From the NCBI GenBank assembly GCA_943789275.1, contig CALSTM010000003.1, positions 120,001 to 152,000 on the forward strand: 32,000 bases of DNA, read 5' to 3'. Below the pieces are notes generated by a model, which saw nothing but the letters and a program-made list of their open reading frames with translations, had not been told where the DNA came from and made no database searches. Source of the stretch: Candidatus Poseidoniaceae archaeon. Lineage in GTDB: Archaea; Thermoplasmatota; Poseidoniia; Poseidoniales; Poseidoniaceae. The translations under genes and the position numbers were made by a program. Below, piece by piece: positions 8,122 to 30,200 of this stretch; position 1 is the first letter of the stretch, and every line of letters starts with the position of its first letter.

Positions 8122-8262
8122 ATATTCCCCTCAGTACACCCCACGAACCCCTCTCGTTTGACTCCTTCGCGCCTTCATATACTCTTGACTTGTTAGCATT
8201 GTGCGACGGAAGACGCCTCATTGAGCACACAATAAGGCATTCCGTTTGACTGAGGAATAACT

Positions 8263-10972: not shown

Positions 10973-12731
10973 TTCGCGTTTCGTCTTCTGAATACGTCAT
11001 TATAATCCGGGCGCCAACGATGTTCTTTGAATCGTCACTCAGTGAATCCGTTGATAGATTGAGAGCGAATGTGCCACCGTCTTCGATGTATTCGCCTCCA
11101 TTGTCAAGTTCAATAAATTCGAATTCTGCATTTACTTCGTACGAACCCGGAGTGGTTGAAATGGATTCCGAAGCCTCTGGTTCAAGTACGAGGTACGATG
11201 CTTCAACGCTCGCAGCGAGGAGGAGTATGACAACGGCTCCGATGCCCATCGGCTTTGGAGCGGGGACTGCATAACGGCCAAATGGATTGTCTGCTGAACT
11301 GTCTCGGAACGCACACAAGAGGAAGTGGGTTGCAAATGCTGCCCCCATCGCTGGAACCGATGGAAATACATCGTCGCCGTAGCCAAGAATTGTCCAAACA
11401 ATAACACCAGACAATGCGGCTATCATCATGGCGATGGTGTGTTGTGAATCGGGTTCATAACCCGTCATGCGTACCAAGAGCAGTGGGACAAATATTCCTC
11501 CAAGGCCGTAGACAGCGAGAACGACAAGTTGGAACACCGAGTCACCAAAACCGGGCAGTTGCTGCCCGACCAATGAGATGAGGGTTGCAAAGACAGCGAC
11601 TCCCAAGGTCACTCTTTTTGTCGTTTTGTGATCTTGACTCCATTCGGGCTTCACGTCATCTGTGATGGCGGCAGTACAGGCGAGAACTTGGCTGTCAGCA
11701 GTCGACATTGTCGCAGCAAAAATGGATGCGAGAATCAAACCACCAAGGAAAGGATTCAGTTGCTCCATAGCGAGTTTTGGCAATCCAGTTTCAGCCCCAT
11801 CGACCCCAAGTTCAGGTAACAGGACTCGACAGGCCAATCCGATGAGGAACATGAGTGCAATGAACGGCGTTTGCCAAACGAAGAACCAAACCATTGCTTG
11901 TTTACGATCGTTATCGTCTTTCAAGGTCATGACGCGTGAGACCACTTGGGGTTGTCCAGCAACGCCGAGGCCACCGAGGAAGAACGCAGCAATCCAAAGC
12001 GTAGCGCCGAATTTCAGTCCAGATGGGAAGATGCTTACCATGGCAGGATCGATACCTTCGAGTTGATTATGCAGGCCGGATAATCCCCCAGATTCTCCTA
12101 TCGCCACGAGGCAGAGTATCGTGGAGCCGACAATCATAACGCATGATTGGGCCGCATCGGTCCATATTGAGGCACGGATTCCGCCAGCGTAGCAGTAAGC
12201 AACAACGAGAACGAAACCGATGAGAATACCTATCGTTGGAGCCCAGTCGAGCATAACTTCGAGGGCGACTCCACCAGCAGTGAGTTGTGCTGCCGCATAA
12301 ATGGACAAGAAAACAACTGAAAGAACAGCGGCCACTTTGGCTTCAGGTGAGCCAGTGGTACTGGACACCAGTGAAGAGAGCGAGCGTATTCCACGCTGTT
12401 CACCTTCTTTTTGGATGTACTTGTACAGCCAAATCCATGCGACAAGTTGTCCTATTGTTGAGACAAGAGCAATCCAGATCGCTGAATATCCGTTGAGGAA
12501 AATAAATCCAATAAATCCGATGAACATGTAACCGGAGTTCCACGTGCTGACTGCTGAAAGTGCAGCTAAGGCTGGATGCATTCCTCTTCCAGCGACGAGG
12601 TAATCGTCTGTTGTATCTTCTTTAACCATCATCGATGCTAAACCTACGCCGGCAAAAAAGAACATGAACAGAAGGAATGAAGCCAAAAGAAGAACGCCGC
12701 TTGCCATGTTATCACTTACTCCAGTTTCCAA
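10950..12731 (-). CDS. Sodium:solute symporter (SSS/SSF) family transporter with extra C-terminal TM helix plus soluble extension
   Basis: N-terminal DYLVAGRGMHPALAALSAVSTWNSGYMFIG and about 13 TM segments are typical of the SSS family. An additional TM (MGIGAVVILLLAASV) is followed by an acidic ~85-aa tail. ATG 12707 is an alternative start that avoids overlap with dph5. Confidence 0.75.
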   Translation of the reverse strand: METGVSDNMASGVLLLASFLLFMFFFAGVGLASMMVKEDTTDDYLVAGRGMHPALAALSAVSTWNSGYMFIGFIGFIFLNGYSAIWIALVSTIGQLVAWIWLYKYIQKEGEQRGIRSLSSLVSSTTGSPEAKVAAVLSVVFLSIYAAAQLTAGGVALEVMLDWAPTIGILIGFVLVVAYCYAGGIRASIWTDAAQSCVMIVGSTILCLVAIGESGGLSGLHNQLEGIDPAMVSIFPSGLKFGATLWIAAFFLGGLGVAGQPQVVSRVMTLKDDNDRKQAMVWFFVWQTPFIALMFLIGLACRVLLPELGVDGAETGLPKLAMEQLNPFLGGLILASIFAATMSTADSQVLACTAAITDDVKPEWSQDHKTTKRVTLGVAVFATLISLVGQQLPGFGDSVFQLVVLAVYGLGGIFVPLLLVRMTGYEPDSQHTIAMMIAALSGVIVWTILGYGDDVFPSVPAMGAAFATHFLLCAFRDSSADNPFGRYAVPAPKPMGIGAVVILLLAASVEASYLVLEPEASESISTTPGSYEVNAEFEFIELDNGGEYIEDGGTFALNLSTDSLSDDSKNIVGARIIMTYSEDETRSGLRVAQ

Positions 12732-13606
12732 CGAAGAAGGGCTTTCTCTTCAACTTCACTCGTCCATGCTGGGACAAGGAGACAATTTAACCTGCCACCC
12801 TCAAGATGTTCCATTTCACCGACCGTTGTGAACACAATGTTTTGTTCGGCAGTGCCCATGTCGGAGCACAGCACCACAGGTAAATCATCCATATTTTCGT
12901 TGAGAAGAGCTTTGAACATCGCTTCTTGGACGGCAATGAGTATCGTATCCGATTCTTTTTCAAATTGATTCAAATGCTCATCGAGTTTATTCCACATCAA
13001 TTCGAACGAGTGCTTTGCATCTCGAGGTTTCATCGGTCGTTGCTCACCAGTGCCTTGGCCGGTTGGGTCAAGATCAAAGAGCACTAAGGAGTGAAGGCCA
13101 CGGGCTTTGTTGACAGCAATCATTTCCAACGGAGAAGTCGCAATCCATCCCCCGTATGGGTATGTTAACGTCGTTTGACGCCCAAATCTGTAATTCGACA
13201 AACCTACTGCACCGGTGACGATGGTCGTAATGGAGACGCCGTGAAACACACGGCATTCGATGTTGTGTTCAAGAGCTTGAAGTTGCAGGTCAACATGCGT
13301 TGTCGCTTGAAGTGGGTCGCCAACGACAAGCAAGGCAACAAGTGAGGTTTTGGCCAAAGCAAACAACTCGTCGGGTTGTTCAACTTCTGGGCGCATGACT
13401 TTCTGGATACTTCCTATGCGCTGTTCCAGTAAATCGAGTTCAGAGTCGGGCCATAGCGCAGTATAGGCTTCATATCTTCGATGCGTTGCTTGCGAAGCCG
13501 CTTGGATCGCTTCAAGCGTCATTCCAGCCACCGTGCCCGGGCCCATGCCAATTAACAACAGGCCAGTTTCAGGGAGGTTTTCCAAAACAACAGTATCTTC
13601 CGCCAT
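12716..13606 (-). CDS. dph5: Diphthine synthase (diphthamide biosynthesis methyltransferase)
   Basis: Tetrapyrrole-methylase-fold motifs in Dph5 order: LLLIGMGPG, YEAYTALW, LLVVGDPLQATTH, HGVSI, and SLVLFDL. Start placed at ATG 13606 because GGAGGT lies 8 nt upstream; the ORF-track start is 13645. Confidence 0.8.
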   Translation of the reverse strand: MAEDTVVLENLPETGLLLIGMGPGTVAGMTLEAIQAASQATHRRYEAYTALWPDSELDLLEQRIGSIQKVMRPEVEQPDELFALAKTSLVALLVVGDPLQATTHVDLQLQALEHNIECRVFHGVSITTIVTGAVGLSNYRFGRQTTLTYPYGGWIATSPLEMIAVNKARGLHSLVLFDLDPTGQGTGEQRPMKPRDAKHSFELMWNKLDEHLNQFEKESDTILIAVQEAMFKALLNENMDDLPVVLCSDMGTAEQNIVFTTVGEMEHLEGGRLNCLLVPAWTSEVEEKALLRWKLE

Positions 13607-13643
13607 ACTCAAACCTCCGACTCGCTTGGATAGAGCGAGTGCC

Positions 13644-14762
13644 ATGCGTCATTTGAGTGTGCCGAGCGCGCAAACCCAACACTGGTTGGAATTGTGCAGG
13701 GCCAATCATTGGAACAGCAACCAAGCCGGCGTCACTCGTTTGGAAGATGGACGTAGCGCTATACCACTCCTTGAATCAGCACCGCCTCAATCGGATTTGA
13801 TTTGGGACGGTAATCACCATCTTGAAATTGCAGTTCAAACCAAAGCCCCAACCCACTGGCTCGAACATTTTGATTCAGATTTGGCCGAAAAATACGAACA
13901 TGAACTTCCACGTTCTTATGAAATTCAGGGCGATGTTTTGATTGTTAAACTTGAAGAATCGGTGTTCCACTACGGTGAGATGATTGCAGATGCCATGTTG
14001 ACTCAACTTCCAAACATCCGTCTGGTTTGTGCAGATTTGGGGGTCAAAGGCGAGTACAGAGTTCGAGAGTTGGAACCACTTGCGAGCCGAGATGGAACGG
14101 TGACGACACGAACTCGAATCAAAGAAAACGGATATTTGCTTTGGGTCGATTCATCAAGCGTGTATTTCTCGTCGCGTTTATCCAACGAGCGGGTCGAAAC
14201 ACTTGCGTCTGCAAACAAACTCCGGGCCCACCTCGAACGACCACTGGTTGTCTGCGACCCGTATGCAGGGGTTGGCCCAAGCATGGGCGCATTGTTGAGT
14301 GAAGCCGACCTTGTATCCGGTTGCTTGGTTGGTGATTTGAATCCTGAAGCATTCACGTTGCTTGAATTGAACATGATTCATCTCTCCGGGCGCAGAAAAG
14401 ACAGCAATGGCAACCCGCCCCCACCACTCTTGCCGATGGAAGTGGCATGCTGCGATGCCAAGGCATGGCCATTAGAGGTGAAGAATATTGGAACAGTTGA
14501 CTTGTTGTTGGTCAACCTTCCACACCACAGCATCGAGCACATTCCGACACTGCTCCCCTTGTTGAAAACCAATCAAACCTCGGTTCTTCGAGGATGGGCA
14601 ATCGTTGACAGAGCGGCCATTTCCGAGAAAGAATTGGAGATTCAGAACTGCATTTTATCGCTTGGCGGAACGGTTGAAAAATTTGCATTCTCCGAAGTCA
14701 AAGGCTTTTCAACGACAAAGAGTTTCATGTGTTTCGAAGTGTGGATGAACCTGCCTGCCTAA
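13644..14762 (+). CDS. Trm5/Taw2 (Met-10+ like) tRNA methyltransferase family protein
   Basis: SAM motifs VCDPYAGVGPSMGAL, VGDLNPEAF and LLLVNLPHHSIEH, preceded by YEIQGDVLIVKL, which is typical of Trm5/TYW2 N-terminal domains. Start moved to the first ATG after the divergent dph5 start. I cannot separate Trm5 from Taw2. Confidence 0.7.
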   Translation: MRHLSVPSAQTQHWLELCRANHWNSNQAGVTRLEDGRSAIPLLESAPPQSDLIWDGNHHLEIAVQTKAPTHWLEHFDSDLAEKYEHELPRSYEIQGDVLIVKLEESVFHYGEMIADAMLTQLPNIRLVCADLGVKGEYRVRELEPLASRDGTVTTRTRIKENGYLLWVDSSSVYFSSRLSNERVETLASANKLRAHLERPLVVCDPYAGVGPSMGALLSEADLVSGCLVGDLNPEAFTLLELNMIHLSGRRKDSNGNPPPPLLPMEVACCDAKAWPLEVKNIGTVDLLLVNLPHHSIEHIPTLLPLLKTNQTSVLRGWAIVDRAAISEKELEIQNCILSLGGTVEKFAFSEVKGFSTTKSFMCFEVWMNLPA

Positions 14763-14800: not shown

Positions 14801-14926
14801 ATGGAGAACACCGTTACCTGTGTTTGCGGCGTAAAAATCGATGTTGCTGGAGCAACACCTCGCAAAGACGGAACTAAAGTTTGGTGCAAAGTCTGTGGAG
14901 CAGTATCCATTCATCACCGCAAGTGA
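14801..14926 (+). CDS. Unannotated 41-aa zinc-ribbon-like small protein (CxC-x19-CxxC)
   Basis: My translation is MENTVTCVCGVKIDVAGATPRKDGTKVWCKVCGAVSIHHRK*. GGTGA lies 3 nt upstream of the ATG. It sits in an otherwise unexplained 185-nt convergent gap and is below the ORF-track length cut-off. Confidence 0.4.
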   Translation: MENTVTCVCGVKIDVAGATPRKDGTKVWCKVCGAVSIHHRK

Positions 14927-14947: not shown

Positions 14948-15868
14948 CTAGTTTTCAAGTCCCATTCCCGCACGCATTCGTTCAAGGTGAGCATGCGCAT
15001 GTTCAACAAAGAATCCGTGCATCAAGAAGCGGTACGATAATCCGGTTGGCCCAACTAAAATCATAGGGAATCGATTGTATGCAAGGTCAGCAAAGTTCGC
15101 TGCACCGATGATTTCATCCATTCGCAGTCCAACAGAATGGTCAAATTGGAAGGAATTGATGGCAGCCTCGTATTCTTTGGCGGTGAGCCAGAAACAGAAC
15201 GTTGTCTTGAACAGTTCATGAGCCGTTTCAAAATCAAGGAATTGCGTCCACTTCTTTTTTACTGGTGCGTAGTCCAAACGAATCGGATTCCAATTTTCCC
15301 AAGATAAATCCTTTTCAGCAATTGGCCAATTCTCGCCGTCCATTTTTCCAAGGTCTCGCATGGTCATGAGGATGCCTTGGTCGTGGTGGACGAATGTTTG
15401 AACCATAAGGTCTTGAATTTCTTTCGGATAGATGTTTACAGCGTCAACCCCTTCTTTCCCAGAATTATCAATAACAAAGTTCAGGAGATTACTTTCGGTT
15501 TGAAAGTGACGTAGAATCAAAATATTTGCTTCAGGGCGAACGAAGTGTTTCATGAAAAAACAAATCTGCCACTGCAAAAAGCGATGCGCCCTCCATTGAA
15601 TAGGGGAGAGTCGTTTGAGATAGTATGTGATGTGAAGTGTAGCGCTTAGGAGAATTTTCAGAGTTGGAAGAACGACAACGCGCAATGGATTTTGCAAATC
15701 CTTCAACCAGTATTCTTTGGCCGCCGAATCCAGTGGAAGGCTGTCATCACCGCTCAACGCATCGCTAAGAGATGCAGGCATCCGTCCGTGGTTTTTTTGG
15801 AGCGCCTTTTCGAGCCGACGCTGGGCTTTCCGCTCCTTTCGTGAAAGTGTTGTTTCAGTTGAGGTCAT
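14948..15868 (-). CDS. Hypothetical protein, 306 aa (last gene of the KAS III / di-iron cassette)
   Basis: Basic N-terminus (RKERKAQRRLEKALQK), one hydrophobic segment (VVVLPTLKILLSATLHI), and a C-terminal HGFFVEHAHAHLERM. GGAGGA lies ~9 nt upstream of the ATG. The start overlaps the upstream gene by 14 nt. No family recognised. Confidence 0.55.
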   Translation of the reverse strand: MTSTETTLSRKERKAQRRLEKALQKNHGRMPASLSDALSGDDSLPLDSAAKEYWLKDLQNPLRVVVLPTLKILLSATLHITYYLKRLSPIQWRAHRFLQWQICFFMKHFVRPEANILILRHFQTESNLLNFVIDNSGKEGVDAVNIYPKEIQDLMVQTFVHHDQGILMTMRDLGKMDGENWPIAEKDLSWENWNPIRLDYAPVKKKWTQFLDFETAHELFKTTFCFWLTAKEYEAAINSFQFDHSVGLRMDEIIGAANFADLAYNRFPMILVGPTGLSYRFLMHGFFVEHAHAHLERMRAGMGLEN

Positions 15869-16604
15869 GTTCCATTTCCTCCAATTGCAATCGATAAAGT
15901 CGAGCGACGACCTTTGCGGTTTTCACAATGCGCTTGGTGGCAATATCATTCACGCAAACGCTATCAAGTGTTGCATAGAACCTCTCCATGTGTTCGCTGT
16001 CGTTGTGTCCGTGATAGGCCATGAAACGAGTTGAATCTTCTCCCAGGCCAGTCAATTCTTGAATCCGCTCGGACCATGACGTAGCCATTTTTTCGCCCAG
16101 GCCTTCAATAATCCACATTGCTCCTAACAAATCGATAGGATTTGGTTGAGAGGATTGGTGCATGAGGAACCCGTGCAGGGCCTCAGAACCAATGTTTTTC
16201 TCCATAGCGAGGATATCTTCAAGCACGCCGCCGGATGCAACATAGTCTTTCTCAAGCATTTCGTAATCTCGATGTTCATCGACGGCATGGCTGATGATTG
16301 TTGAACGGATTTCACCGTGATTTCGGTCAAAGCTGCTCGCCGTTCTTGTGATCCATCGTGAACCTTCGATGACTTGTTGGCGAATATTACGGAGAAAGAC
16401 TTGGTGGTCTTCTGCAGTGTATGTTCCAAGGTCAATACGGCGAAGAAGAGGGACCTTGGAAAGGTCTCGTTCGAATCCAAGCCATACACGAAGCAGCTGC
16501 TGGAGGCATACCTGAGCATGCTCATTCAAGACGATACCTTCAGGGATACTCTCTTCATCGGTTCCGTTCGAACCACCTTCAATTGCAATATTTCCGTTGT
16601 TCAT
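15855..16604 (-). CDS. Heme-oxygenase-like fold, putative di-iron oxidase/oxygenase (iron-containing redox enzyme family)
   Basis: About 250 aa and predicted all-helical. Carboxylate/His candidates are spaced on successive helices (HAVDEHRDYE, WIIEGLGE, YHGHNDSEHMERF), as in the HDO / CADD / PqqC-TenA-like superfamily. The start overlaps the KAS III stop (ATGA). Confidence 0.5.
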   Translation of the reverse strand: MNNGNIAIEGGSNGTDEESIPEGIVLNEHAQVCLQQLLRVWLGFERDLSKVPLLRRIDLGTYTAEDHQVFLRNIRQQVIEGSRWITRTASSFDRNHGEIRSTIISHAVDEHRDYEMLEKDYVASGGVLEDILAMEKNIGSEALHGFLMHQSSQPNPIDLLGAMWIIEGLGEKMATSWSERIQELTGLGEDSTRFMAYHGHNDSEHMERFYATLDSVCVNDIATKRIVKTAKVVARLYRLQLEEMEHDLN

Positions 16605-17737
16605 TGACTCACCACTGTGAAATGCAGGTATGTTGTGTTGAAGCGACCACTCTCCGGAACAAAGCAGAGCACCCTGTCCCCTTCATTGACCGATATTTCA
16701 TCGGTTCGTAAAAACTCATCCAACATAATGAACAGTGACGCACACCCGGTATTTCCTCGCGTGTAGAGATTCGTCCACCATTTTTCTTCGGGTATTCCAA
16801 CGCCGGCCTTGTTGAGCATCTCAAGAATTTTATTTCGGAAATGATGGCTGGAATAATGGCAGAGGAAATGGTCGACATCGCCCGGTTTACTCACGCCTTC
16901 CTCGACCAATCGGAGGTAACCATCGACGCCCATTCGCATCAAGTTATCCAGTAGCCGCACATCTTGACGAAGGAGCAGCGCCCCATCCTGTTCCGCCTCA
17001 GCATACGTGTCGTAGTCTTGCCAAGTCCGGGTATCTTCCGGTCGTCCAGCGGACCCGACGCTCATGCAAGTGGGAAGTGCGTGTGCGTGTGAAAAACCTC
17101 GAATCCAATCAATTCTCAGACTCAGGCCTTTAGGCGCGGGCTTGTTTTGCAGCAACAATGCACCAGCACCGTCGGAAAGCATCCAGCGAAGGAACTCCGT
17201 ACTGAAATCGATGCGTTTTGCAGCAAAAGTAGAGGTTGTTGCTGCTTCATACCGCTGTTTCTTCAGCAGACGGCTTGCCAATTCACTTGACAACACCAAG
17301 GCCGCTTCATGCTCATCCAGACGCATACTGTTCCATGCCGCTTTCAATGCCATAATGGAGGAGGAACAGATTCCGTGCGTCGTCAGGATTTCAATCCCTG
17401 GTAAATCGAGTTCGGCTTGAACCATACTTGCCATGCCTGGTGCCGGCAAATCGCCTTGCGTAGATGCCACTGCTAGCATGCCGACTTTTTCTCTCCCAAC
17501 AAAAGCTCTGTCAAGGCATTCTTCGGCAGCCTTAGCAGCCATCTCCGTATTGCTGTGGGTGGTCTGCTGTTGTTCATCGATAGCATAGTGCCGTGTCTGT
17601 ATCTTGTTGGCCTTTTGTATCTGAACGCGTAATGAAGAAGGCTTTCCATGGACGGCCCCAAGAACCTTTTCCACTTCATCAACAGGTATGGCTGGCCCAG
17701 GAAGGAATCTTCCAGTGCTGGTGATGTAGACACTCAT
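16601..17737 (-). CDS. KAS III (FabH)-like thiolase-fold condensing enzyme
   Basis: N-terminus YITSTGRFLPG. Candidate Cys-His-Asn triad in canonical order: HGICSSSIMAL, FLCHYSSHHF, and RGNTGCASL. Also LSDGAGALLL. At 378 aa it is longer than housekeeping FabH. The start overlaps the upstream stop (ATGA). Confidence 0.7.
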   Translation of the reverse strand: MSVYITSTGRFLPGPAIPVDEVEKVLGAVHGKPSSLRVQIQKANKIQTRHYAIDEQQQTTHSNTEMAAKAAEECLDRAFVGREKVGMLAVASTQGDLPAPGMASMVQAELDLPGIEILTTHGICSSSIMALKAAWNSMRLDEHEAALVLSSELASRLLKKQRYEAATTSTFAAKRIDFSTEFLRWMLSDGAGALLLQNKPAPKGLSLRIDWIRGFSHAHALPTCMSVGSAGRPEDTRTWQDYDTYAEAEQDGALLLRQDVRLLDNLMRMGVDGYLRLVEEGVSKPGDVDHFLCHYSSHHFRNKILEMLNKAGVGIPEEKWWTNLYTRGNTGCASLFIMLDEFLRTDEISVNEGDRVLCFVPESGRFNTTYLHFTVVSQ

Positions 17738-18309
17738 TCGATGACCTCTTGCTTATGTGAGCGCTGATACGTCCAGCAACGCCACCATTCCTGAAAGTAT
17801 GGTAAAACGACGAGAATCGCCATTGAGAACATGTATACTGCGGCGTAATTTCCAGTCGCCCCAAGCGGCTCTTTTCTCCACTCAAGTCCAAAACCGCCGC
17901 CCCAATCCAAGGTGATCATATCAACGAAAACTTCCCACTTTCGAACGATGATCAACAGGAACAAAAAGAACGGGAGTGTAGAGAGGTAATTGTGGGCATG
18001 GATCTCCCAAATGCTGATTTCACGTTTATCAGTGGTATAGTGGACGTCGTAATGGGCAATGAATTCGTGAGCAACCAGTGCAGCTAAGCACAGGAGCAGA
18101 ACGAGTACATTCACTTCAAACACAAGAGAAAGCACCAATGGTATAGCAATTTGGAACCCCATGAGGCAATGAATATTTGCCTCACGAAGTCCAGAAGTGG
18201 ATTCTATTGATGTCTGTTTATGGCACCACCAGTCAAGCATACTGGCAAGACCCCATAGCGGCAAGAGCACGTAGAGAATAACATACAACACCAGCGTCGC
18301 TTCATCCAT
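17734..18309 (-). CDS. His-rich integral membrane protein (~5 TM), function unknown
   Basis: Hydrophobic segments with clustered histidines at the predicted membrane boundaries (DWWCHK, AHEFIAHYDVHY, EIHAHNY). GAGGGG lies ~7 nt upstream of the ATG. First gene of the cassette. Confidence 0.6.
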   Translation of the reverse strand: MDEATLVLYVILYVLLPLWGLASMLDWWCHKQTSIESTSGLREANIHCLMGFQIAIPLVLSLVFEVNVLVLLLCLAALVAHEFIAHYDVHYTTDKREISIWEIHAHNYLSTLPFFLFLLIIVRKWEVFVDMITLDWGGGFGLEWRKEPLGATGNYAAVYMFSMAILVVLPYFQEWWRCWTYQRSHKQEVIE

Positions 18310-18340
18310 TGGTTTCCCCTCAGCCAGTTTGAGACCCTCA

Positions 18341-18352
18341 TTTGATAAAAAG
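18341..18352 (-). promoter_or_regulatory. TATA-like box (CTTTTTATCAAA on the minus strand) for the four-gene cassette
   Basis: This is the only AT-rich element in the 81-nt gap between the DP2 stop (18391) and the membrane-protein ATG (18309). It lies ~32-45 nt upstream of the ATG. Confidence 0.3.
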
Positions 18353-18390
18353 CCAATTCCGGTTACGCTGTCTTTGAAAACGGAAAATGT

Positions 18391-21300
18391 TCACAGAAAA
18401 TCAGCAAGTGAGAGTTGTTTTGCTCGGTCGTTATTGAACAGAGAGTCTGCACTATCGGCCAACCATTCGACGTTCTGTTTGGTGTAGGTATCGACGCCGT
18501 ATGTCGCCATAACGTGCTTTGTGACTTTGATGTACTTGCGTACAGCCCCTTCAGAAACCGTGAGTGCAAGATTCCCACCGCACAAACCTCCTTCAGATTT
18601 GGCAACTCCGACGCTGGACAAACCTCTTCCAGTCTCCTTCTTTGGCTGAATACAGTTCCCCGCCACCGGCATACGCCGATACGAATGAGCACACTTGAGG
18701 CAGCGAATTTTCTGGCGAGCATAGGCGTTAAGGTTGCCACGTAAATCCGGTAAGAAGTGTGAGCGAACCACACTTGATGCCACGGTACGAACATCGACCC
18801 CACGCAACCGATGTCCGAGATCGAGTTGCCCGTTCATCTTGTCAATCATGGTGTCGAGGGTTTTGTATGCAGAAAGAGCTGGACCTTGGTCCAATGCGTA
18901 GCAATCGTGCGTGTAGCCATAGCCCCGAACAGCAGCAACAGAGCCCAACCTACGTTCAACAAAATCCATCCGTTCTGCGCATTCCTTCGGGTGCGGCTGG
19001 GACAACGTCGTTTCGTAAAAGTCGCGACTGTAAAACCATCCCGAGTCGACATTCAACGCTTCTTTATCCACTTCAGTAGGGTTGAGTCTCGTCGTTAAGA
19101 CCAGCGGGGCATCCATGAGGCCGCCACGGTTCGCGGGGAGGATTTCTCTACTGAAGTTCAACAATCCATCCATGAGGAGCATGATTGCATCTTCATCCCC
19201 GTCACAGTTTCGTCGTTTAGCTGCATGGAACAAGGGGTGAGCATAGCCACCAGAACAATCGGCCCATCCGATGATTCTGCTGAGCACTCCTCCTGAGGTG
19301 TGCGGCGCAAGTGCACAGATGAGATGACCAACCAAGTCATCAGGGGTGTTGACATTGTAGTACGGTTCAAGGCCATAATAGCGTACCAGTAACTCATCGA
19401 TAAATTGAGCGGTTCGGACAAAGAATTCACCGGCGTTTTTGCTGACGATGAAATCTTGCGGAAAAATTTCCAACATTTGTTCATCTCCTGTAAGCGGCTC
19501 ACCTTCAGAATCATGCGTGTAGCCCAGCGAATGAAGCGTTTGCCAGGAAACATCGATTTCTCTGGGGGTGAAATGTGTTACTGGGACGTCGCTCATGTCG
19601 AAGCGGACGGTACCGTCACGAAACACGGGGAGTTGATATTTTGCGCGCAGCAATCCCTTTTCAATGGCTTCAGGAGTTTGATCCCGACTGGCAATTTTCT
19701 TCATGCATTTGACCTGCCGAGGTATTCTGTCAATACCCAGTCGTATACGTGCATCTTCGATCATCGTGTCGAGACGAACCGTTTGAATCTCTCCTCTACG
19801 GCGCCGTTTGGTGTTTTCATTTTCACGCATTGCGGTTCGCCCCCCGCAAGTTTCCCCGACGCGTTCCATGCCATCGGCATCAACTAAACGATGGTGGCAA
19901 AGGATGAATGGAGATTCTTTTCCACACTTTTTGCACGTCCGGCGACCCATTTGTACACGTATGCTCTGTTTCTCTGCAGCGTTAGCCAAGAGGCGCTGAT
20001 TACCACCGTTCAAGTCGATTGGGAAAAGAGCGTGCGTCATTGGATTCATGATACGAGGGGCCGCTTTCTCAGGGCGACCCATGCGGCATCCGATGCGAAC
20101 AGGTGCGGCGTGAACCCATCGAAGGTCCGAAATCTTTCGAACTTGCAACATGATTCCATCAACGGCATGGTCGTCCTCATGGATTTGTGCAGCAAGATAT
20201 TTCTTCGGGTCCGCTGGACCGGGGTCTTCGACCTTCGAAGCGGCTTGCCGGCCAACCTCATCGGTTTCTGTAATCCCCAAGCCTCGTTGTCTTGCGTCCG
20301 TTTCGGCAGCAATACGTACAGTCGCACGAGCCTGTCGAAGTTCTGAAAGTCTTTTTCGCTCTTCAGTCAAGGTTTCATGACAATCTTTCAGTTGCTCAAT
20401 CCGTTGTTCAAATCTTGATTTAGCATCCACGATTCGGAGCGGCTTCTTCCCCTCATCACTGAATCCAAATCCTTCCAGCACAGCTGGCCAGCCCGCGGTA
20501 ATGACCAGGTCATCCCCATCGTGGTGGTGACGAAGTCCGAGAATCATAGCGGCGGCTTTGGCTAGACCGTGCTGAATATATGCCCAAATTTCAGGTATTT
20601 CCTGGTTGAAAATAGATTCCAGTGGGGCGACTTTCGGCCCCGGAATCTCATAGTCATCCAAGTGTTCAAAGGATTCAGGCCGCAAAATTTCCATGGATTT
20701 GGCGGACCAATTTTGCACACCGCCCCGAATACGTAACTGCCTCTGTTCGTTTACTGGATACGCAGTGAGGTTTTCCTCTGGAGCAATAACGTCCGAATGT
20801 GAAGTGCCCAACGCTTCAATTTCCGCCTCTTCTAACAGGTCCAATACTGCTGGTACCCATTCGATAGGAAGGTCGAGGAACCACGGGTTGTGAGGGTTTG
20901 GAATGGCTGTTTTGAAACGTTTTGACACGCCTTTAACTTGGTTCCAGTCCAGCGAGCAAGCGGCTAAGAACACGTGCCATTTTCTGCGTATATGGAACTG
21001 AGAATGGGGGTCTTCTGCGTCTTCAGGGTGGATGCCAGGTATACCTGCAGGAAATTGACTTCGCATTATACCGGCCAATTCGGAGAAATCGTCGAGTGAT
21101 TCGGATGAGTTCAACTCCTCAATCAAGTCACTCGCCCACCAATCGTTGGTATAACCTGCAGGTACCAATTTCTTGTTGTTCTCCATAAATTCCCCATAAC
21201 CAATAACCAACTCGCCGTTGTCCCAAACCGAGCGGACTTTGGAACTGATTGCCGTGTAGCTTTTCGCATCGTCCAAACGTAAGAATCGGCCGTCAGCGAG

Positions 21301-22512
21301 TACAACCCACGGCCCGTCGGTGTCGTCTGAAGGAGTGATTGCGCATGCTTTCCCAGGCCGTTCGATTTTCATTTGAGTTCCAATGGTGATGAAATCATCC
21401 ATGGCTAGCATTGAAGCAGTATTTGTGGAGGCCGCTGCCAAACCTGAGGGGCGTGCTCGACCATACCTTAGGCGAAATCCACCGGGTTGGAGCGGTGCAC
21501 CAAAGACCGGCCGTCCAGCGATAATGTCGCGCATGAATTTCGAAATGGTGGGCACTTTGCGGGATTTGAATTGTGGGCCATCGCCCTTGTATTCGTCCGA
21601 TTTCCCTTTCGATGCAAATTTGGAAATGAAATCCCATCCAGGGACTTTTAATCGCTCGGTGTGTTTCTGAATCTTCGGTGCTTTCAGACACATACCTTCG
21701 CCAATAACCAGCAGCACACCGCCTCGAATCCGTGCCTCGTCGATGTTACGCACACGCCCATATCCTGCACATTCGATTCGTTCGGTGGACTCGCCGTTGA
21801 TCATGATGGGACATGCTCGAACGATTTCCTCAATTTCTGCCGGGGAAGGACGGTATTGCAGGTTTCCACGGTACAAACCAAATTCTTCCTTCACTCGCTC
21901 GACTTCTGGGTCTGTTGGTTGATAGTGCCCGATATTCAATTCTCGTCGAATCATATCTGCAATGAGAACGGCCAGTGCCTGAGCAGTACCGCCTGCGGCA
22001 CGAATTGGTCCTGCAAAGTGGACAGAGACAAATTGTGAACCATCGACGTTGTTCAAAAGTCGAACTTCACTGATCCCTTCGAGAGGAGCGACCAAAACGG
22101 CTTCTGTCAACACTGCAAGGCCAACGCGAAGCCCAACATCGATTGCCGTGATGAGGTCGTATCCTTGTTCTCGAAAACCTCTTGCCACGCTCTGGGCCAT
22201 CATGATGGAGGTCGTTTCTCGATCGTGTTCAGCCAAGAGTTTTCGAATATCATCAGCAACCTCGTACCCTTCGAGGTATTCAATCAGCAGTTTTTCAGTT
22301 CGCCCAGCCAAGTCAGCGGCCCGTGGAATTTCCACGAATTCCTTGTGATCAAAGCCAAGCTTACGGGCTTGTTCTGCTACGATGTATGCTTCATCTGCAT
22401 GCTCATCAAGCCAATGATGGTACCGCTCCATTTCCGCTTCCAATCGTTCGATATCTAAGCCAATGAGGGGGTTGTGTCCCCTTTTTTGACCCGTACCACT
22501 CGATGCAGACAT
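18391..22512 (-). CDS. polC: DNA polymerase D (Pol II) large catalytic subunit DP2
   Basis: Conserved DP2 N-terminus (LVAPLEGISEV...HFAGPIRAAGGTAQA), central blocks (RPEKAAPR, CKKCGK zinc module), C-terminal blocks (GHLICALAPHTSGG, NCDGDEDA, LMDAPLV), and a terminal Cys cluster (CLKCAHSYRR...GGLCGGNL). AGGAG lies 5 nt upstream of the ATG. No DP1 gene is adjacent. Confidence 0.95.
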   Translation of the reverse strand: MSASSGTGQKRGHNPLIGLDIERLEAEMERYHHWLDEHADEAYIVAEQARKLGFDHKEFVEIPRAADLAGRTEKLLIEYLEGYEVADDIRKLLAEHDRETTSIMMAQSVARGFREQGYDLITAIDVGLRVGLAVLTEAVLVAPLEGISEVRLLNNVDGSQFVSVHFAGPIRAAGGTAQALAVLIADMIRRELNIGHYQPTDPEVERVKEEFGLYRGNLQYRPSPAEIEEIVRACPIMINGESTERIECAGYGRVRNIDEARIRGGVLLVIGEGMCLKAPKIQKHTERLKVPGWDFISKFASKGKSDEYKGDGPQFKSRKVPTISKFMRDIIAGRPVFGAPLQPGGFRLRYGRARPSGLAAASTNTASMLAMDDFITIGTQMKIERPGKACAITPSDDTDGPWVVLADGRFLRLDDAKSYTAISSKVRSVWDNGELVIGYGEFMENNKKLVPAGYTNDWWASDLIEELNSSESLDDFSELAGIMRSQFPAGIPGIHPEDAEDPHSQFHIRRKWHVFLAACSLDWNQVKGVSKRFKTAIPNPHNPWFLDLPIEWVPAVLDLLEEAEIEALGTSHSDVIAPEENLTAYPVNEQRQLRIRGGVQNWSAKSMEILRPESFEHLDDYEIPGPKVAPLESIFNQEIPEIWAYIQHGLAKAAAMILGLRHHHDGDDLVITAGWPAVLEGFGFSDEGKKPLRIVDAKSRFEQRIEQLKDCHETLTEERKRLSELRQARATVRIAAETDARQRGLGITETDEVGRQAASKVEDPGPADPKKYLAAQIHEDDHAVDGIMLQVRKISDLRWVHAAPVRIGCRMGRPEKAAPRIMNPMTHALFPIDLNGGNQRLLANAAEKQSIRVQMGRRTCKKCGKESPFILCHHRLVDADGMERVGETCGGRTAMRENENTKRRRRGEIQTVRLDTMIEDARIRLGIDRIPRQVKCMKKIASRDQTPEAIEKGLLRAKYQLPVFRDGTVRFDMSDVPVTHFTPREIDVSWQTLHSLGYTHDSEGEPLTGDEQMLEIFPQDFIVSKNAGEFFVRTAQFIDELLVRYYGLEPYYNVNTPDDLVGHLICALAPHTSGGVLSRIIGWADCSGGYAHPLFHAAKRRNCDGDEDAIMLLMDGLLNFSREILPANRGGLMDAPLVLTTRLNPTEVDKEALNVDSGWFYSRDFYETTLSQPHPKECAERMDFVERRLGSVAAVRGYGYTHDCYALDQGPALSAYKTLDTMIDKMNGQLDLGHRLRGVDVRTVASSVVRSHFLPDLRGNLNAYARQKIRCLKCAHSYRRMPVAGNCIQPKKETGRGLSSVGVAKSEGGLCGGNLALTVSEGAVRKYIKVTKHVMATYGVDTYTKQNVEWLADSADSLFNNDRAKQLSLADFL

Positions 22513-23236: not shown

Positions 23237-24532
23237 ATGGTTGAAATCTTCAATCCCGCCACGACCAGCACGAAAGGCTTGTCCGAGTTTGCCCCCGACT
23301 CAACTGCTGGACGCAAATTGGTTTTTTATCACGCCAGTGAAGGCAAACCCCTCGCAACCCCTTGGCAAGTTGCCTTAACCCGTTCGAAATTACTGACAGA
23401 ACTGAATCTCCCAGAAGGATACATCCTCGACTGCGCTTGCGGAAGTGGGATTCAATTGGGCGCACACATGGCGATTTTACAACGGCCAGGGATTGGTGTC
23501 GAGTTGGATCCATTACGTGCTCAAGCAAGTGCCGTCAATCTCCAATCGATTGCCACCTATCGGAATGAAACAGATGCCGAACGGATGCAGCAAACCAGAA
23601 TTTTTGCGAGCGACGGACGCGACGGAGCAGTTGTCTGCGCCGCTCTCGCTGACCACTTTTCTTTGGATACCTTCCCCAATATTGCACTGCTCCACCTCGA
23701 CCCAGCACGTCCTCGCAACAGTAGAACGCATGGCCTTGAAGAAATGGCACCGCGGCTTGATGAAGTGTTCAACGGCTGGGCACCGTATCTGTCAGAAGGC
23801 CTTCATGGGCCAGCAATGATATTGGATTTATCTCCTCGATTGACCCACGAACAACGGCTTGAAGTCGAGTCTCTGGTTGATGCGGTATGGAAAGACATCG
23901 CTCGAACATGGGTTTGGACTTCACGCGGCAGAGGTCGCGTGGACCGTCTGGCCTTGTGGCTTGGCGATGCAGCAACTAAGGGCATTGCCCGCCGCTTTGT
24001 GCGTATACCTCCATCGATTGCGGAAGACGCACACGTCGTTTCTGGCGGGCGGCAACTTGGGGCAGGCGACGGTTTGCCAAAGTCGACCCGCCAACCACCG
24101 CGTCGCGGTGAACGCGTCAGCATTTTGGATGCAGCACTGGTTGAAAGCGGATTAGCGGAAACATGGCTTGCTTCAGTGTCGAAATCAGAAGTATTCACTT
24201 GGGGTGTTGTCGAAGGCCGCCGACCACAAATCCACCACGCCCATCCACTGCGTCTTGACAACCCAATGGACAGGATGCTCGTTCAAGCAACCGGTCGAGT
24301 CGTTGCTCTTGCTCGGATGGAACTACGTATCGAAACAGTGGACCAATTGGTCGAACTGTTCTTGGAACACGATATCGGGAAAATGACCGTTCGCGTCCCA
24401 CTCTCTCCAGAGATTCAACCCAAAGTCCAAGGGGCAATCGACCGTCAACTTTCGAGAAGACACGGCCGGAGAAACGCTTTCTTGGCCCAACAACCTGGCG
24501 ACGACATGCTCTTGGTTTGCATCACGGAATAA
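23237..24532 (+). CDS. Class I SAM-dependent methyltransferase, probably RNA-modifying, with uncharacterised C-terminal domain
   Basis: Motif I ILDCACGSGIQ, motif II GVELD, and a motif IV-like LLHLDPARP resembling N-methyltransferase DPPx/DPAR motifs. The ~200-aa C-terminal domain is unrecognised. Confidence 0.6.
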   Translation: MVEIFNPATTSTKGLSEFAPDSTAGRKLVFYHASEGKPLATPWQVALTRSKLLTELNLPEGYILDCACGSGIQLGAHMAILQRPGIGVELDPLRAQASAVNLQSIATYRNETDAERMQQTRIFASDGRDGAVVCAALADHFSLDTFPNIALLHLDPARPRNSRTHGLEEMAPRLDEVFNGWAPYLSEGLHGPAMILDLSPRLTHEQRLEVESLVDAVWKDIARTWVWTSRGRGRVDRLALWLGDAATKGIARRFVRIPPSIAEDAHVVSGGRQLGAGDGLPKSTRQPPRRGERVSILDAALVESGLAETWLASVSKSEVFTWGVVEGRRPQIHHAHPLRLDNPMDRMLVQATGRVVALARMELRIETVDQLVELFLEHDIGKMTVRVPLSPEIQPKVQGAIDRQLSRRHGRRNAFLAQQPGDDMLLVCITE

Positions 24533-26233: not shown

Positions 26234-27166
26234 ATGGATGTACAAATCGTTGATGGATGGCCGCGTGGCAATGAAATTCGAATTCTTTTGACTGACACAG
26301 ATGCTGCACAAGTGAACGCTGTTCGGCGTGCACTCATTGCAGATGTGCCAAAACTAGCAATTGACAAAGTGAACTTCACCCAAGGTGTAAACCAAGACAA
26401 CAAAGGAGAAGTTTTCGAATCCGTCAACGTTCTTCCAGATGAAACAATCGCCCACCGTTTGGCAATGATCCCAGTCCCGACATTTCCAGACGAAGGAATC
26501 ACATTCCCGGAAGATTGTCCAAACTGCAAAGACCTTGCAGAAGAATCCAAGGGCTGTTTGACCTGTCAAGTACTTTACCACATTCGAAAGGATGGGCCAT
26601 CAGAGGATTCCGATGAAGAATACCGTACAGTCTATGCCGGTGACCTCACCAACATTTCTGACCAAATGTTCGATATCCGTGAAGAACACAAGCGAATCCC
26701 TCTTACCATTCTTTCAAAGGGTCAATTCCTCGAATTGTACGCTTTCGCTACGCTTGGCCGTGGCCGAGATCACGCAAAGTGGTCTCCTGTTGCTGCAGTC
26801 GGTTTCCGACAACACCACATCGCTAAACTCAACAAGCCAAAGAAAGCGAATGTTTTGTTTGACCTTGATCTGAAAACTTCCGACGGAAAGCCAATCGATG
26901 CCAAACTTTTCGGAAAAGACAAGACAATGACCGATATTAACCACCTCATGGACCTCGAAAAAGCCCTCCACCAAGTCGGCCCTGGAACCAACAGAGACGG
27001 CGACTTTGATGATGCAATCACCCTCGAACCAGTCGAAGGCGCATACATCTTCTCTTACGAGACCGATGGAAGTCTTACCCCTGAGCAAGCATTCAACGGA
27101 GCCATGGATGAACTGCAAGGGCGTTTCGACAACCTCGCTATCGAAATCGAACGTGCTTTCGCTTGA
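26234..27166 (+). CDS. rpoD: DNA-directed RNA polymerase subunit D (Rpo3)
   Basis: NAVRRALIADVPKLAID, PDETIAHRLAMIPVP, and a four-Cys loop CPNC-x10-CLTC. ATG 26234 is preceded by GAGGTGG; the ORF-track start 26213 is a TTG overlapping the S11 stop. Confidence 0.9.
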   Translation: MDVQIVDGWPRGNEIRILLTDTDAAQVNAVRRALIADVPKLAIDKVNFTQGVNQDNKGEVFESVNVLPDETIAHRLAMIPVPTFPDEGITFPEDCPNCKDLAEESKGCLTCQVLYHIRKDGPSEDSDEEYRTVYAGDLTNISDQMFDIREEHKRIPLTILSKGQFLELYAFATLGRGRDHAKWSPVAAVGFRQHHIAKLNKPKKANVLFDLDLKTSDGKPIDAKLFGKDKTMTDINHLMDLEKALHQVGPGTNRDGDFDDAITLEPVEGAYIFSYETDGSLTPEQAFNGAMDELQGRFDNLAIEIERAFA

Positions 27167-27175
27167 AACTCTCTT

Positions 27176-27189
27176 GACTTTCGTTTTTC
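27176..27189 (+). terminator. T-rich tract (gactttcgttttt) after rpoD, putative terminator
   Basis: A T5 run at 27184-27188 lies ~20 nt after the rpoD stop and precedes the surface-protein start region. Confidence 0.25.
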
Positions 27190-27242
27190 ACACCATTGGC
27201 TCTAAGCCGAGGTTTGATAACGGAGTAATCTTAGCGATTTCT

Positions 27243-30200
27243 ATGCAGAACGACCGCAGAATGGCACTTTCCCTTGTTGCATTGTTTGTACTCTCGACAA
27301 TGATGCCCCTTGTCTCCGCCGGTGAAGAGAACGATATCATCACTTCCTCACCCAGTGACGACTATTCCGTCTCCATTTCTCGAGACCTACCGTTAACGGA
27401 ACTTTTGTACAAAGATTCTACTCAGAAGTCCAGTACCGGTGGCCGCGCAGCATGCGTTACCCAGACTGATGCGGGCATACCTGGTGATGCTGGAAACAAT
27501 TCTGCAACTTCACGCAGTCTTGGAAACGATCCGAACAGCGGCCAAACCGGCAATCAAGGCTGTGTCGACTCAACCGATACCGAAGATTGGTATGAAATTA
27601 CAACAACTGCAGGCAAGGATGTTGACATTGAACTGGTCGTCCCGAGCGGAGCAGACTTCGACCTCTATCTCATCGACTCATCCGGAACATACCTTGACAG
27701 TTCTGAATCCGTTACATCCCTCGAAAAGGTGACGACCCAGTCAACATCCCTTTCCGGCGTCTCAAGTACATTTTACGTTGAAGTGTTTGTTTACAGTGGT
27801 GACGGACAATACTCCTTGCGTACATGGACAAACAATACGCCCCCGCGACCGGATCTAACCATCAGCTCAGTCACCGAACCTGCATCGGGACAAGCAGGTT
27901 CTACGGTGAGTGTGGAATATGTTGTCGAGAACATCTACAATACCACCTCAGACGCCTTCGAGGTTCAATTTGTCTTGTCTACAGACCAAACCTACGACTT
28001 TGGAGACGAACTCATTGACGCATCAGAACCGGAGGCGGCTCTTGCAGAGAACACCAGCCGCACCACTACAGCGCAAGTACTTCTCCCGACAGGCCTTTCC
28101 AACGGCACATACTATTGGCTTCTGTTTGCTGATGGTTATGATAACCTCACTGAGCAGAACGAATCAAACAATTTCCTTTGGTCTTCGGGAGTGATGTTAG
28201 TGGGAGATTCATGCGACGACCTCCACCCGAACGGCAAAGATGACGCTGGACTCGGAGGAGACGCGCCTTCGGAGGAAGCCAATGTTACTGCACCACTCGG
28301 TACCAACGTTACCGCCACCTATACCGGTTGTATTGACGGTGTTGAAGCCAACGATGTGTTCTCCTTTGATGTGCCAGCAAACCACACGATTGACGTGACG
28401 CTGAGTTTAGAGGAATCCGTCGTCGTTTCTCTTGATTTGACCGACAGTAATTCAGCGGAAGTCGACTCTTCGACTGCGTTTTTCGGCGGCGATGCGACCG
28501 TCACTTCTTCGGAAGGGGCCTTCGACGGTATCGGCGGAACGTATTACATCAATTTATCACGGTCAGGTACGGGAGTCAACTGGACTTTGGAGGTTTGGAC
28601 GAATTATTCGACACCGAAAGCCAATCTTGTTATTGAAAATTCTTCTTCACCCCTTCAGGCCAGCGCAGGCGATACCATCGACATCGATGTGGAAGTTCTC
28701 AACTCTGGAACGATTCCAGCCCCTGCCTCGATACTCACGGCTTGGCTTTCAGTTGATATTGGTCTTGCAGACCATGATGTAGAGTTGGGCAACTTAACTC
28801 TCCCGTCTATCGATGTAAATGTTTCAGACATGTATCAGCTATCGGTGACCGTGCCTGCAAGTACCACTGGCGGCAATTATTCAATCATCGTCATGGTCGA
28901 CTCTGATGAACAGATCGACGAGAAAATCGAAGACGATAACATGGTTTTAACTCCAGATGAAATTCTCATCGATACCAAAGAAGTATCCTGTGCATCACAG
29001 GATGACGCTGCCTCAGGCGGCGATGCTGGCGAGGACGAGTCAACCGCAATCGTGCTTGGATTGGACGTATCAATGACGCTTACCGGGTGCATTCACAAGG
29101 ATGTTGATGATGATGATTGGTACGAGATTGAAGTATCGCCCGGCCTCAACGTGACGGCAACACTGATCAATTCTGCAGATCAAGATGCGGACCTGGTCCT
29201 TCGAAATAACGCCGGCAATGCCATTGACAGCAGCTACCTTTCGGCATCAAACGACGAATTCGTATCCACTTCCAGCACCACCTCCTACGCCGGCACGGGC
29301 GGAACATTCTACCTCAGCGTACAAAGCTGGTTGAGCCTTGGCGTTTACACACTCGTTATCGAGACTGAAGGCGTGGATCCGAACAATTTCAACTGCGGCC
29401 AGCCCGATGATGTCGGGCTTGGCCAAGACGCTCCAGCCGGCTCAGGGATTAACATCGGTCAAAATCCAACTGTATCTGGGCAAGGATGTTTCAGTGGCGT
29501 CGATGAATTGGACGTTTTTGCATTCACCGTTAACGATGGAAAGAACTTCGAAATTGAATTTGATGCGGACACAGTAACTGCCATGACTGCCACTTTGGAA
29601 GATACCAATGGAAACTTCATTGCTGAAGTCGATAACACTTCGTTTGGTCTCTTGTTCAATTCGTACGGCACTGATTATGAAGGTAAATCAACAGATTTGA
29701 TACTCACAGTTCGCTCCGGTGGCAGTGCGGGATTCTACAATCTTACAGTCACTCCTCTTGATCCGGCTCCTGCAGATATTGCGGTCTCATCTCTTGTGTG
29801 TCCGACAAACCACACATCGGGCTCTGAAGTCCAAATCACGTGGGAACTGGTGAGTCTTCGAGGTGATGCAGAATCGACTTCCATTCTCGTGCACCTCGAT
29901 TTACTCGATGAAACCGGAACTAAAATCGATCTCATCGCAGAAGAAACGATTGTCGTCAATGGTGTTTACAATACCACCTTCGGCTCCAAACTCGTGTACT
30001 ACACAACAAACGACGAACAGGCAAGTGGAACATACTCATGCCGCCTAACCATCGATGTTGACGATTCCTTGTTTGAGTCGAATGAAACGAACAATGAATT
30101 CCTTGGCGATTCCTTCTTCATTCAAAATGAACAAGAATTGTGGGCCAACGATGTTGACCGCGATGGCTTCAATACGACCGATACAGGAGATGGAATCATC

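Follow-up and report, generated by a model that had tools for sequence, protein, structure and literature searches.

A cassette of four overlapping genes in a marine group IIa archaeon, with a StlD/DarB-type ketosynthase and a heme-oxygenase-like oxidase: a possible DarA-independent route to a dialkyl-ring lipid

In the DarABC/StlCD pathways, a beta-ketoacyl thioester and an alpha,beta-unsaturated acyl thioester are reportedly joined into a 2,5-dialkyl-cyclohexane-1,3-dione, which a DarA-type aromatase is then said to convert into a resorcinol (work ascribed to Fuchs et al. in 2013 and Mori et al. in 2016). The Sorghum sorgoleone pathway and Streptomyces SrsABC rely on type III polyketide synthases, methyltransferases and P450 or flavin hydroxylases; there, desaturases prepare the acyl chain, the condensing enzyme builds a resorcinol, and oxygenases lead to a hydroxyquinone lipid. 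The heme-oxygenase-like dimetal oxidases (HDOs), in turn, are known for C-C cleavage and decarboxylation (PMC13108848); in several members the substrate carboxylate binds Fe1, and UndA couples desaturation to CO2 loss, MboA and VarO being plain desaturases (PMC13185094, PMC13108848). Here, we analyse a cassette of four minus-strand genes, g1 to g4, in a 32,000-nucleotide stretch (hereafter the window) of the genome of a Candidatus Poseidoniaceae archaeon (contig CALSTM010000003.1, positions 120,001 to 152,000). The genes encode a histidine-rich membrane protein (g1), a ketosynthase (g2), an HDO-like protein (g3) and a DUF6999 protein (g4), and the closest homologues of all four proteins belong to Candidatus Poseidoniaceae (marine group IIa archaea).

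Our reading, tentative and plausible if still short of probable, is that the cassette encodes a form of the dialkyl-cyclohexanedione/resorcinol pathway that would do without DarA and leave ring oxidation to the di-iron oxidase, and that this four-gene operon is the archaeal copy of a widespread bacterial cassette. A first-pass annotation, made from the DNA letters, had suggested an olefin, an alkyl ketone or a signalling lipid as the product; an oxidised dialkyl-cyclohexanedione or resorcinol is better supported.

The g2 protein matches the NCBIfam model NF005293 (StlD/DarB family ketosynthase) with 374 bits (E=8e-112; curated cut-off 450) and the DarB exception model NF053539 with 322 bits (cut-off 550); against FabH models it scores 79.5 bits (cut-off 249) and 61.5 bits (cut-off 292), with E values from 1e-17 to 1e-22. 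Moreover, it aligns over its full length (residues 2-376) with StlD in the PDB (5gk0; E=7.8e-70, 37.5% identity), and its residues C124, H294, N329 and E152 correspond to C126, H302, N337 and the base E154 of StlD. All four are invariant in 77/77 cassette ketosynthases (here and below, counts over loci, those of upstream regions included, are phylogenetically non-independent, the loci being related to each other). C124, H294 and N329 make up the Cys/His/Asn triad that the first-pass annotation had recognised in a thiolase-fold protein. Its label for g2, KAS III-like, was right in pointing to a condensing enzyme other than the housekeeping FabH and too generic otherwise, the protein being now placed in the StlD/DarB family. 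By homology, g2 is shown to be a DarB/StlD-type, predicted ring-forming ketosynthase with an intact active site. This identity, in turn, points to an enzyme that condenses two acyl chains into a ring, and away from the initiation of chains or the synthesis of olefins, and the gene is not to be taken as a sign of FabH-type fatty-acid synthesis in these archaea.

The assignment of g3 to the heme-oxygenase-like metal-oxidase type, already proposed in the first-pass annotation, was borne out by Pfam and by profile searches of the PDB. The protein scores 31.3 bits against PF14518 ("iron-containing redox enzyme"; gathering score 28.9), and the fused ketosynthase-HDO protein of the soil clade described below reaches 43.1 bits. 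The profile of the g3 family matches 3dde, an uncharacterised protein of the heme oxygenase fold that is labelled TENA/THI-4 and shares the HxxxDxxH residues, with E=4.9e-10; a weak match (E=0.03) is to MboA, an HDO acetylenase whose metal ligands are Glu86, His89, Glu143, His172, Asp176 and His181 (PMC13185094). The invariant residues of g3 (alignment A3) include H106, E110, H111, D113, E141, E167, H198, D202 and H205; among them, E110 of helix 1, E167 of helix 2 and H198-x3-D202-x2-H205 of helix 3 align to MboA ligands. Of the six di-iron ligands that had been anticipated, the alignment thereby yields candidates for a part, namely the glutamates of helices 1 and 2 and the HxxxDxxH of helix 3, the helix-1 histidine being aligned to D113. 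The possibility that g3 is a TenA/thiaminase or a PqqC-type protein, which the earlier annotation had named as the result that would speak against it, was not upheld: PF14518 is the sole Pfam match at E<=1 and the ligand-type residues are conserved. As a side observation, the JGI name of the HDO-like g3 homologues of 234-249 aa (P0129, P0190, P0210), "3-oxoacyl-ACP synthase-3", looks wrong.

The distribution of the cassette was followed by scanning one genome per GTDB species with the g3 alignment as the query, and relatives of g3 were found in at least 597 genomes. The order g1-g2-g3-g4 is kept in about 75 of the 80 best species genomes among these, which come from three phyla and one archaeal order, and nearly all complete loci of this set are collinear; the carriers among these best 80 belong to Poseidoniales, Gammaproteobacteria (including Rheinheimera, Endozoicomonas, Nitrincola, Salinispirillum, Cellvibrio and Woeseiaceae), Myxococcota and Burkholderiales. 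Around g3 homologues of about 60% identity from Cellvibrionaceae and Myxococcales, the four genes follow the same order with overlapping ends, and the cultured Halomonas beimenensis and Pseudoalteromonas harbor the cassette alone, in unrelated surroundings and without an acyl carrier protein (ACP) gene, the order being kept in complete genomes. The copy of H. beimenensis lies at 535333-538523 of CP021435 (8001-11191 of L085) and that of Pseudoalteromonas THAF3 at 702872-706049 of NZ_CP045419. The four families are conserved as neighbours in archaea as well as in bacteria, in agreement with the unit that the first-pass annotation had drawn; the cassette is not confined to archaea, and cultured Halomonas, Pseudoalteromonas and Rheinheimera commonly have it.

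A distant DUF6999 subfamily, 25-30% identical to g4, was retrieved from 321 metagenome loci with a median G+C of 0.69, which, from their accession names, are taken to be soil-type JGI samples. In this soil clade g2, g3 and g4 are collinear and g1 is absent; the conserved core of the cassette is g2-g3-g4. Furthermore, the ketosynthase and the HDO form a single reading frame in 51 of the 52 assessable soil loci, versus 0/81 in the marine set. A gene fusion of this kind speaks strongly for both enzymes using one and the same intermediate. A metagenomic protein of 868 aa (P0380), which joins a ketosynthase, an HDO and the first half of DUF6999, was not counted as a triple fusion: at the junction of HDO and DUF6999 its sequence differs from that of the family, probably owing to a frameshift where the genes naturally overlap by 14 nt, and its ketosynthase-HDO link looks genuine.

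In a neighbor-joining (NJ) tree of ketosynthases, rooted on StlD and with 200 bootstraps, those of the cassette form a long-branched clade, in which the archaeal sequences are monophyletic in 100% of the replicates and lie beside Myxococcota with a bootstrap of only 31%. An exchange with bacteria, suspected from the beginning, is likely, given that the diversity is far wider in bacteria and that the archaeal ketosynthases make up one fully supported clade. Because of this much wider bacterial diversity, a single ancient transfer into the Poseidoniales is the simplest reading. An island-like composition was looked for and rejected: the G+C of the cassette (45-51%) is similar to that of the surrounding housekeeping genes, and the whole region is even in its base composition, so that the cassette belongs to the chromosome and does not represent a recent island.

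Four database entries deserve a separate mention. In metagenome-assembled genomes with bacterial labels, cassettes 75-81% identical to the archaeal one are filed under "Verrucomicrobiales" (L028, NZEQ01000089.1), "uncultured bacterium" (L031) and "Salinimicrobium sp." (L047). The first two nest inside Poseidoniales in the ketosynthase tree, which does not include the partial ketosynthase of L047, and L028 has flanks of the Poseidoniales type (ribonucleotide reductase); all three are probably mis-binned archaeal contigs rather than products of a recent transfer. Lastly, on the Nostoc flagelliforme plasmid pNFSY08 (L169), a cassette-type ketosynthase (45% identity) and, after it, fragmentary matches to HDO and DUF6999 occupy the stretch 6001-8584, which has no listed genes and may be a decaying cyanobacterial copy or a gap in the gene table of the plasmid.

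The product of g4, which had been described as an unrecognisable orphan, is in fact a full-length member of DUF6999 (PF22523; 298.8 bits, profile positions 5-275 of 275). The family is small, a set of 1.84 billion proteins containing 198 representatives of it at 50% clustering, and in 33 of its sequences, down to 22% identity, residues H121, P148, H162, D163, D212, D243, H284 and E289 are invariant. In the AlphaFold2 model (predicted local distance difference test, pLDDT, 89.7) the protein is all-alpha, with one marginally hydrophobic helix (residues 62-80), and every invariant residue is located on its own long helix or at a helix start. These residues suggest a putative metal site. Neither Foldseek of the model against the PDB (E<1) nor sequence and profile searches of the PDB gave any match. 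Two possible identities of DUF6999 were tried and rejected: a hidden HDO, that is, a relative of g3 (hhalign probability of about 1% or less), and DarA (about 1%).

The g1 protein has no match in Pfam (E<=1) or in NCBIfam. A hydrophobicity scan and the AlphaFold2 model (pLDDT 88.7) give it four to five hydrophobic helices, and in alignments A4 and A5 the residues D26, W27, C29, H30, E36, E43, H47, H81, E82, H86, D88, E102, H104, H106, E174, R177 and C178 are invariant. The six histidines (30, 47, 81, 86, 104 and 106), the two cysteines and several acidic residues of this set lie at helix ends, many of them within the motifs DWxCH, HExxAHxD and ExHxH, and would be compatible with a putative metal or heme site at one membrane face. 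Foldseek of the model against the PDB retrieved no match at E<1, and the best profile match in the PDB was the ADP/ATP carrier 9j3n (E=0.001), over a hydrophobic stretch and hence not meaningful. A truncated desaturase was also considered and rejected, the hhalign probability being below 1% against both desaturase families that neighbour the cassette. The first-pass description of a polytopic, histidine-rich protein that does not match the His boxes of desaturases agrees with these data and with the differing motifs. The name "diguanylate cyclase", given by NCBI to g1 homologues of 185-190 aa (P0394, P0399, P0420 and others), looks wrong, as no GGDEF domain is present; such names of g1 and g3 homologues could mislead metabolic reconstructions of marine group II archaea.

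The partners of DarB in the described pathways were then looked for around the cassette. Canonical DarB is paired with DarA (PMC13192835). We defined the DarA family from two loci, L170 and L167, which include a canonical darA-darB-darC locus on a Burkholderia pseudomallei plasmid; the DarA of B. pseudomallei is 35% identical to the protein beside the DarB-like ketosynthase of Streptomyces. By tblastn, no DarA homologue was found in the 166 cassette-type loci (L001-L166) or in the window, and no ACP gene ( (DarC) in the window or in the annotated cassette loci; the Pfam search of the window genes also confirmed the earlier remark that neither ACP nor type II fatty-acid synthase genes occur there. 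A different type of neighbour emerged instead: in 32 of 50 loci of the archaeal type, the cassette directly adjoins a gene of the Pfam family FA_desaturase, which occurs in two unrelated subtypes. Myxococcota loci also have such a gene beside the cassette, together with an MMPL transporter gene.

Other neighbours were recorded in single groups of carriers. A DUF5931 histidine kinase and a LuxR/NarL-type response regulator often follow or precede the cassette in the soil clade (12 soil loci; for instance L111, 6986-8968, and L088, 2243-3364), and a two-component pair is near the cassette in Myxococcota loci. In several Rheinheimera genomes, a gene of the penicillin-amidase family (811 aa) lies directly after the cassette (L065, 9664-12099; also L070 and L083); this family includes acyl-homoserine-lactone acylases. 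No regulator linked to the cassette was found in Poseidoniales or in most Gammaproteobacteria.

On these grounds, we can depict the following possible pathway. By homology with StlD/DarB, a beta-ketoacyl thioester would be loaded on Cys124 of g2, Glu152 would act as the base in a Michael addition to a 2-enoyl thioester, and a Claisen ring closure would then yield a 2,5-dialkyl-cyclohexane-1,3-dione carboxylate. The archaeon being without an ACP, the substrates would be coenzyme A (CoA) esters, e.g., intermediates of beta-oxidation. The g3 oxidase would act, in an O2-dependent manner, directly on the product of the ketosynthase in place of the DarA aromatase; the most economical route to a dialkylresorcinol would be a desaturation or an oxidative decarboxylation of the ring carboxylate. 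The intermediate of the DarB type being a ring beta-keto-carboxylate, its oxidative decarboxylation would lead to the aromatic resorcinol in one step. Such a hand-over fits the ketosynthase-HDO fusion. More speculatively, g4 and g1, both presumed to be metal-dependent, might carry the oxidation of the ring further (e.g., into a lipid of the hydroxyquinol or quinone type) or provide electrons from the membrane. A long-chain product that resides in the membrane is favoured by the neighbouring desaturase genes and by the membrane association; it would be an alkyl-ring lipid whose alkyl chains are desaturated in those lineages that have a neighbouring desaturase gene; this product and the roles of g1 and g4 are predictions from sequence. 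A more far-reaching proposal, which we regard as doubtful, is that of a new route to a non-isoprenoid, fatty-acid-derived dialkyl-resorcinol/quinone membrane lipid, made by a ketosynthase of the DarB type and three metalloenzymes; the HDO would then be the first in polyketide-like ring oxidation, and DUF6999 and g1 would represent novel folds and metal sites.

Several observations weigh against the DarA-independent pathway. The score of g2 (374 bits) lies below the curated StlD/DarB cut-off of 450, g2 stands on a long branch away from StlD in the NJ tree, and it is possible that its condensation outcome differs from that of StlD/DarB. In g3, the helix-1 ligand His89 of MboA aligns with the invariant Asp113, next to the invariant H106 and H111, so that metal site 1 may be atypical. 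Furthermore, both g1 and g4 are without detectable relatives of known function, and only their invariant residues point to a putative metal binding; the soil clade lacks g1, which would hence be non-essential to the core chemistry. Lastly, no desaturase gene was found within the 32-kb window of this lineage, and the supply of CoA esters in this archaeon, from the beta-oxidation of marine group II, is a presumed one. As for the score of g2, canonical Burkholderia DarB reaches 600 bits, yet the DarB-like ketosynthase of Streptomyces, which adjoins a DarA homologue, obtains the same 374 bits as g2; since this DarA-linked enzyme scores no higher, the sub-threshold value is no argument against DarB-type chemistry.

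The same data have to be weighed under other explanations. Once the ring has been formed by the ketosynthase, the HDO might cleave a C-C bond, as BesC, FlcD and UndA do, so that the final product would be acyclic and a long-chain ketone, a diketone or an olefin, the type of product named in the first-pass annotation. Both C-C cleavage and decarboxylation are known reactions of HDOs (PMC13108848), a hydrocarbon-like lipid would suit the desaturase and MMPL neighbours, and the long branch that separates g2 from StlD points in the same direction; but the whole triad is invariant, as is Glu152, the base specific to StlD, which favours ring formation, and no known olefin genes (OleB, OleC, OleD, CER1-type enzymes or an aldehyde decarbonylase) are found nearby, so that we consider this outcome unlikely. 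Somewhat less likely still is a diffusible cyclohexanedione or dialkylresorcinol signal, with g1 and g4 acting in its maturation or export and not in the synthesis of a membrane lipid. Dialkylresorcinols and cyclohexanediones are reported to be quorum signals in Photorhabdus asymbiotica (Brameyer 2015), and this precedent would agree with the DUF5931 kinase and LuxR-type regulator of the soil clade, with the two-component pair of Myxococcota and with the penicillin-amidase family gene right after the cassette in Rheinheimera. However, Poseidoniales and most Gammaproteobacteria show no regulator linked to the cassette, and the desaturase neighbours and the membrane protein suit a bulk lipid better. 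That g2 is an archaeal FabH starting bacterial-type fatty-acid synthesis, next to three unrelated genes, agrees with public annotations as beta-ketoacyl-ACP synthase III, a name that JGI gives even to g3 homologues; this is highly improbable, considering that the FabH models yield 61-80 bits (cut-offs 249-292) versus 322-374 for the StlD/DarB models, that the four genes stay together in both domains and that some of them are fused, and that no ACP or Fab genes are in the window.

The positions of the genes and of the other elements of the locus are reported in Table 1. The overlaps between the genes, as listed in the first-pass annotation, were found again by reading the sequence: ATGA at 17734-17737 (g1/g2), ATGA at 16601-16604 (g2/g3) and 14 nt at 15855-15868 (g3/g4), with identical offsets in most Poseidoniales loci. 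Four overlapping minus-strand genes, whose order is kept across archaea and bacteria, are in accordance with the single operon that it had postulated.

Table 1. Features of the cassette and of its immediate surroundings (nucleotide positions refer to the window).
Feature	Position	Strand	Description and basis
g1	17734..18309	-	191 aa; ORF listing and direct minus-strand reading
g2	16601..17737	-	378 aa; ORF listing and direct minus-strand reading
g3	15855..16604	-	249 aa; ORF listing and direct minus-strand reading
g4	14948..15868	-	306 aa; ORF listing and direct minus-strand reading
Candidate metal ligands of g3	residues E110 (plus H106, H111 or D113), E167, H198, D202, H205		alignment versus MboA
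DP2 (PolD large subunit)	18391..22512		upstream of g1; Pfam-confirmed
Promoter-like element CCGG-N6-CTTTTTAT	18345..18362	-	TATA-like box and conserved upstream CCGG; 36-53 nt before the g1 ATG
Terminator-like hairpin and T run	14830..14859	-	about 90 nt past the g4 stop, in the convergent gap; consensus match only

Between the DP2 stop (18391) and the g1 ATG there is a gap of 81 nt. The first-pass annotation had placed here a TATA-like box belonging to the cassette, and this element was recognised as CCGGAATTGGCTTTTTAT (Table 1); the end coordinate that had been assigned to the cassette, 18352, falls inside this promoter-like element and outside g1 (17734..18309). Of 49 Poseidoniales upstream regions, 25 have an exact CTTTTTAT at a distance of 41-45 nt ahead of the g1 ATG, the mean of shuffled sequences being 0.09, and in 23 of the 25 regions having the box CCGG stands exactly 10 nt upstream of it; the composite CCGG-N6-CTTTTTAT motif occurs once in the whole window. 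Moreover, the placement of CTTTTTAT is kept with differing upstream genes, these being DP2, a ribonucleotide reductase or an epimerase. Since the element is conserved despite these different genes, it supports a promoter belonging to the cassette itself, and the CCGG-N6-CTTTTTAT element would have a promoter function, as judged from its sequence and position.

On the other side, the cassette ends, as had been stated, at a convergent gap, which measures 185 nt and is followed by a convergent TYW2/Trm5-type gene; it contains the hairpin and its T run at 14859-14840 (-), but terminator-like sites in the region are not more frequent than in shuffled sequences. According to Pfam, the flanking genes are housekeeping ones: a sodium:solute symporter, a TP_methylase-family protein (read as diphthine synthase), TYW2, DP2, ribosomal protein S13, an S4-domain protein (probably ribosomal protein S4) and an Rpb3/RpoA-type subunit of RNA polymerase (read as subunit D).

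Some other open reading frames (ORFs) of the window may be annotated as follows. The 1320-aa ORF at 27006..30968 (+), with CARDB repeats as its sole Pfam match, probably encodes a large cell-surface protein; as predicted, it begins with TTG and shares about 160 nt with the RNA polymerase subunit D-like gene before it, and its true start is likely to be later. The 431-aa ORF at 23237..24532 (+) has no Pfam match, and its family (f7) lies two genes from DP2, beside a phosphoribosyltransferase gene, in 13 related Poseidoniales loci. In the ORF listing, the divergent ORFs at 12716..13645 (-) and 13533..14762 (+) have 113 nt of their 5' ends in common. The homologue in another locus (L005) begins with MPINKRPVSG, so that the GTG start at 13533 has probably been set too far upstream.

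If the proposed pathway is true, the ring-forming chemistry of DarB/StlD has a second and widespread context, without DarA and without an ACP, in which an HDO is physically coupled to the ketosynthase, in soil bacteria by fusion, and polyketide-like rings would be added to the amino-acid and fatty-acid substrates of HDO chemistry. A first hint at function would also be gained for the DUF6999 and g1 families, both of which lack a PDB match by Foldseek and by sequence and profile searches. Furthermore, uncultured marine group II archaea would make a fatty-acyl-derived ring lipid with genes shared with bacteria, and this lipid could serve as a biomarker, an antioxidant, a signal or a redox lipid. 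Given the cultured carriers (Halomonas, Pseudoalteromonas and Rheinheimera), the question is directly testable.

As the first-pass annotation had supposed, the combination of these genes does not correspond to a described pathway: our literature search found no paper on the gene set, on DUF6999 or on archaeal DarB-type genes, and no characterised HDO paired with or fused to a ketosynthase is reported in a 2026 review (PMC13108848), in the MboA paper (PMC13185094) or in the literature found. The cassette shares with DarABC/StlCD of Pseudomonas, Chitinophaga and Photorhabdus (dialkylresorcinol, cyclohexanedione and stilbene) the full-length ketosynthase homology, the Cys-His-Asn triad and the Glu base, and also the compact operon using fatty-acyl precursors; it differs from them in having no DarA/StlC aromatase and no DarC ACP and, in their place, an HDO-type oxidase, DUF6999 and a histidine-rich membrane protein, and in the score of g2, which is below the curated family cut-off. 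The first step would be like that of DarAB/StlCD, although the marks of this cluster type (DarA, DarC and a ketosynthase above the cut-off) are absent. With HDOs such as UndA, BesC, MboA/VarO, SznF and CADD, g3 has in common the PF14518 match, the HxxxDxxH helix, the core Glu of helix 2 and the Glu of helix 1; it departs from them in having Asp113 at the helix-1 His position, and its closest solved relative, 3dde, is uncharacterised. The g1 protein resembles the His-box enzymes of the FA_desaturase and FA_hydroxylase families in its lipid context and in its invariant histidines, which cluster where transmembrane helices end at one face of the membrane, but it has six of these residues versus their eight to nine, other motifs and no Pfam match. 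Finally, the enzymes of the sorgoleone and SrsABC pathways are not homologous to the proteins of the cassette, but the logic of the pathway is alike.

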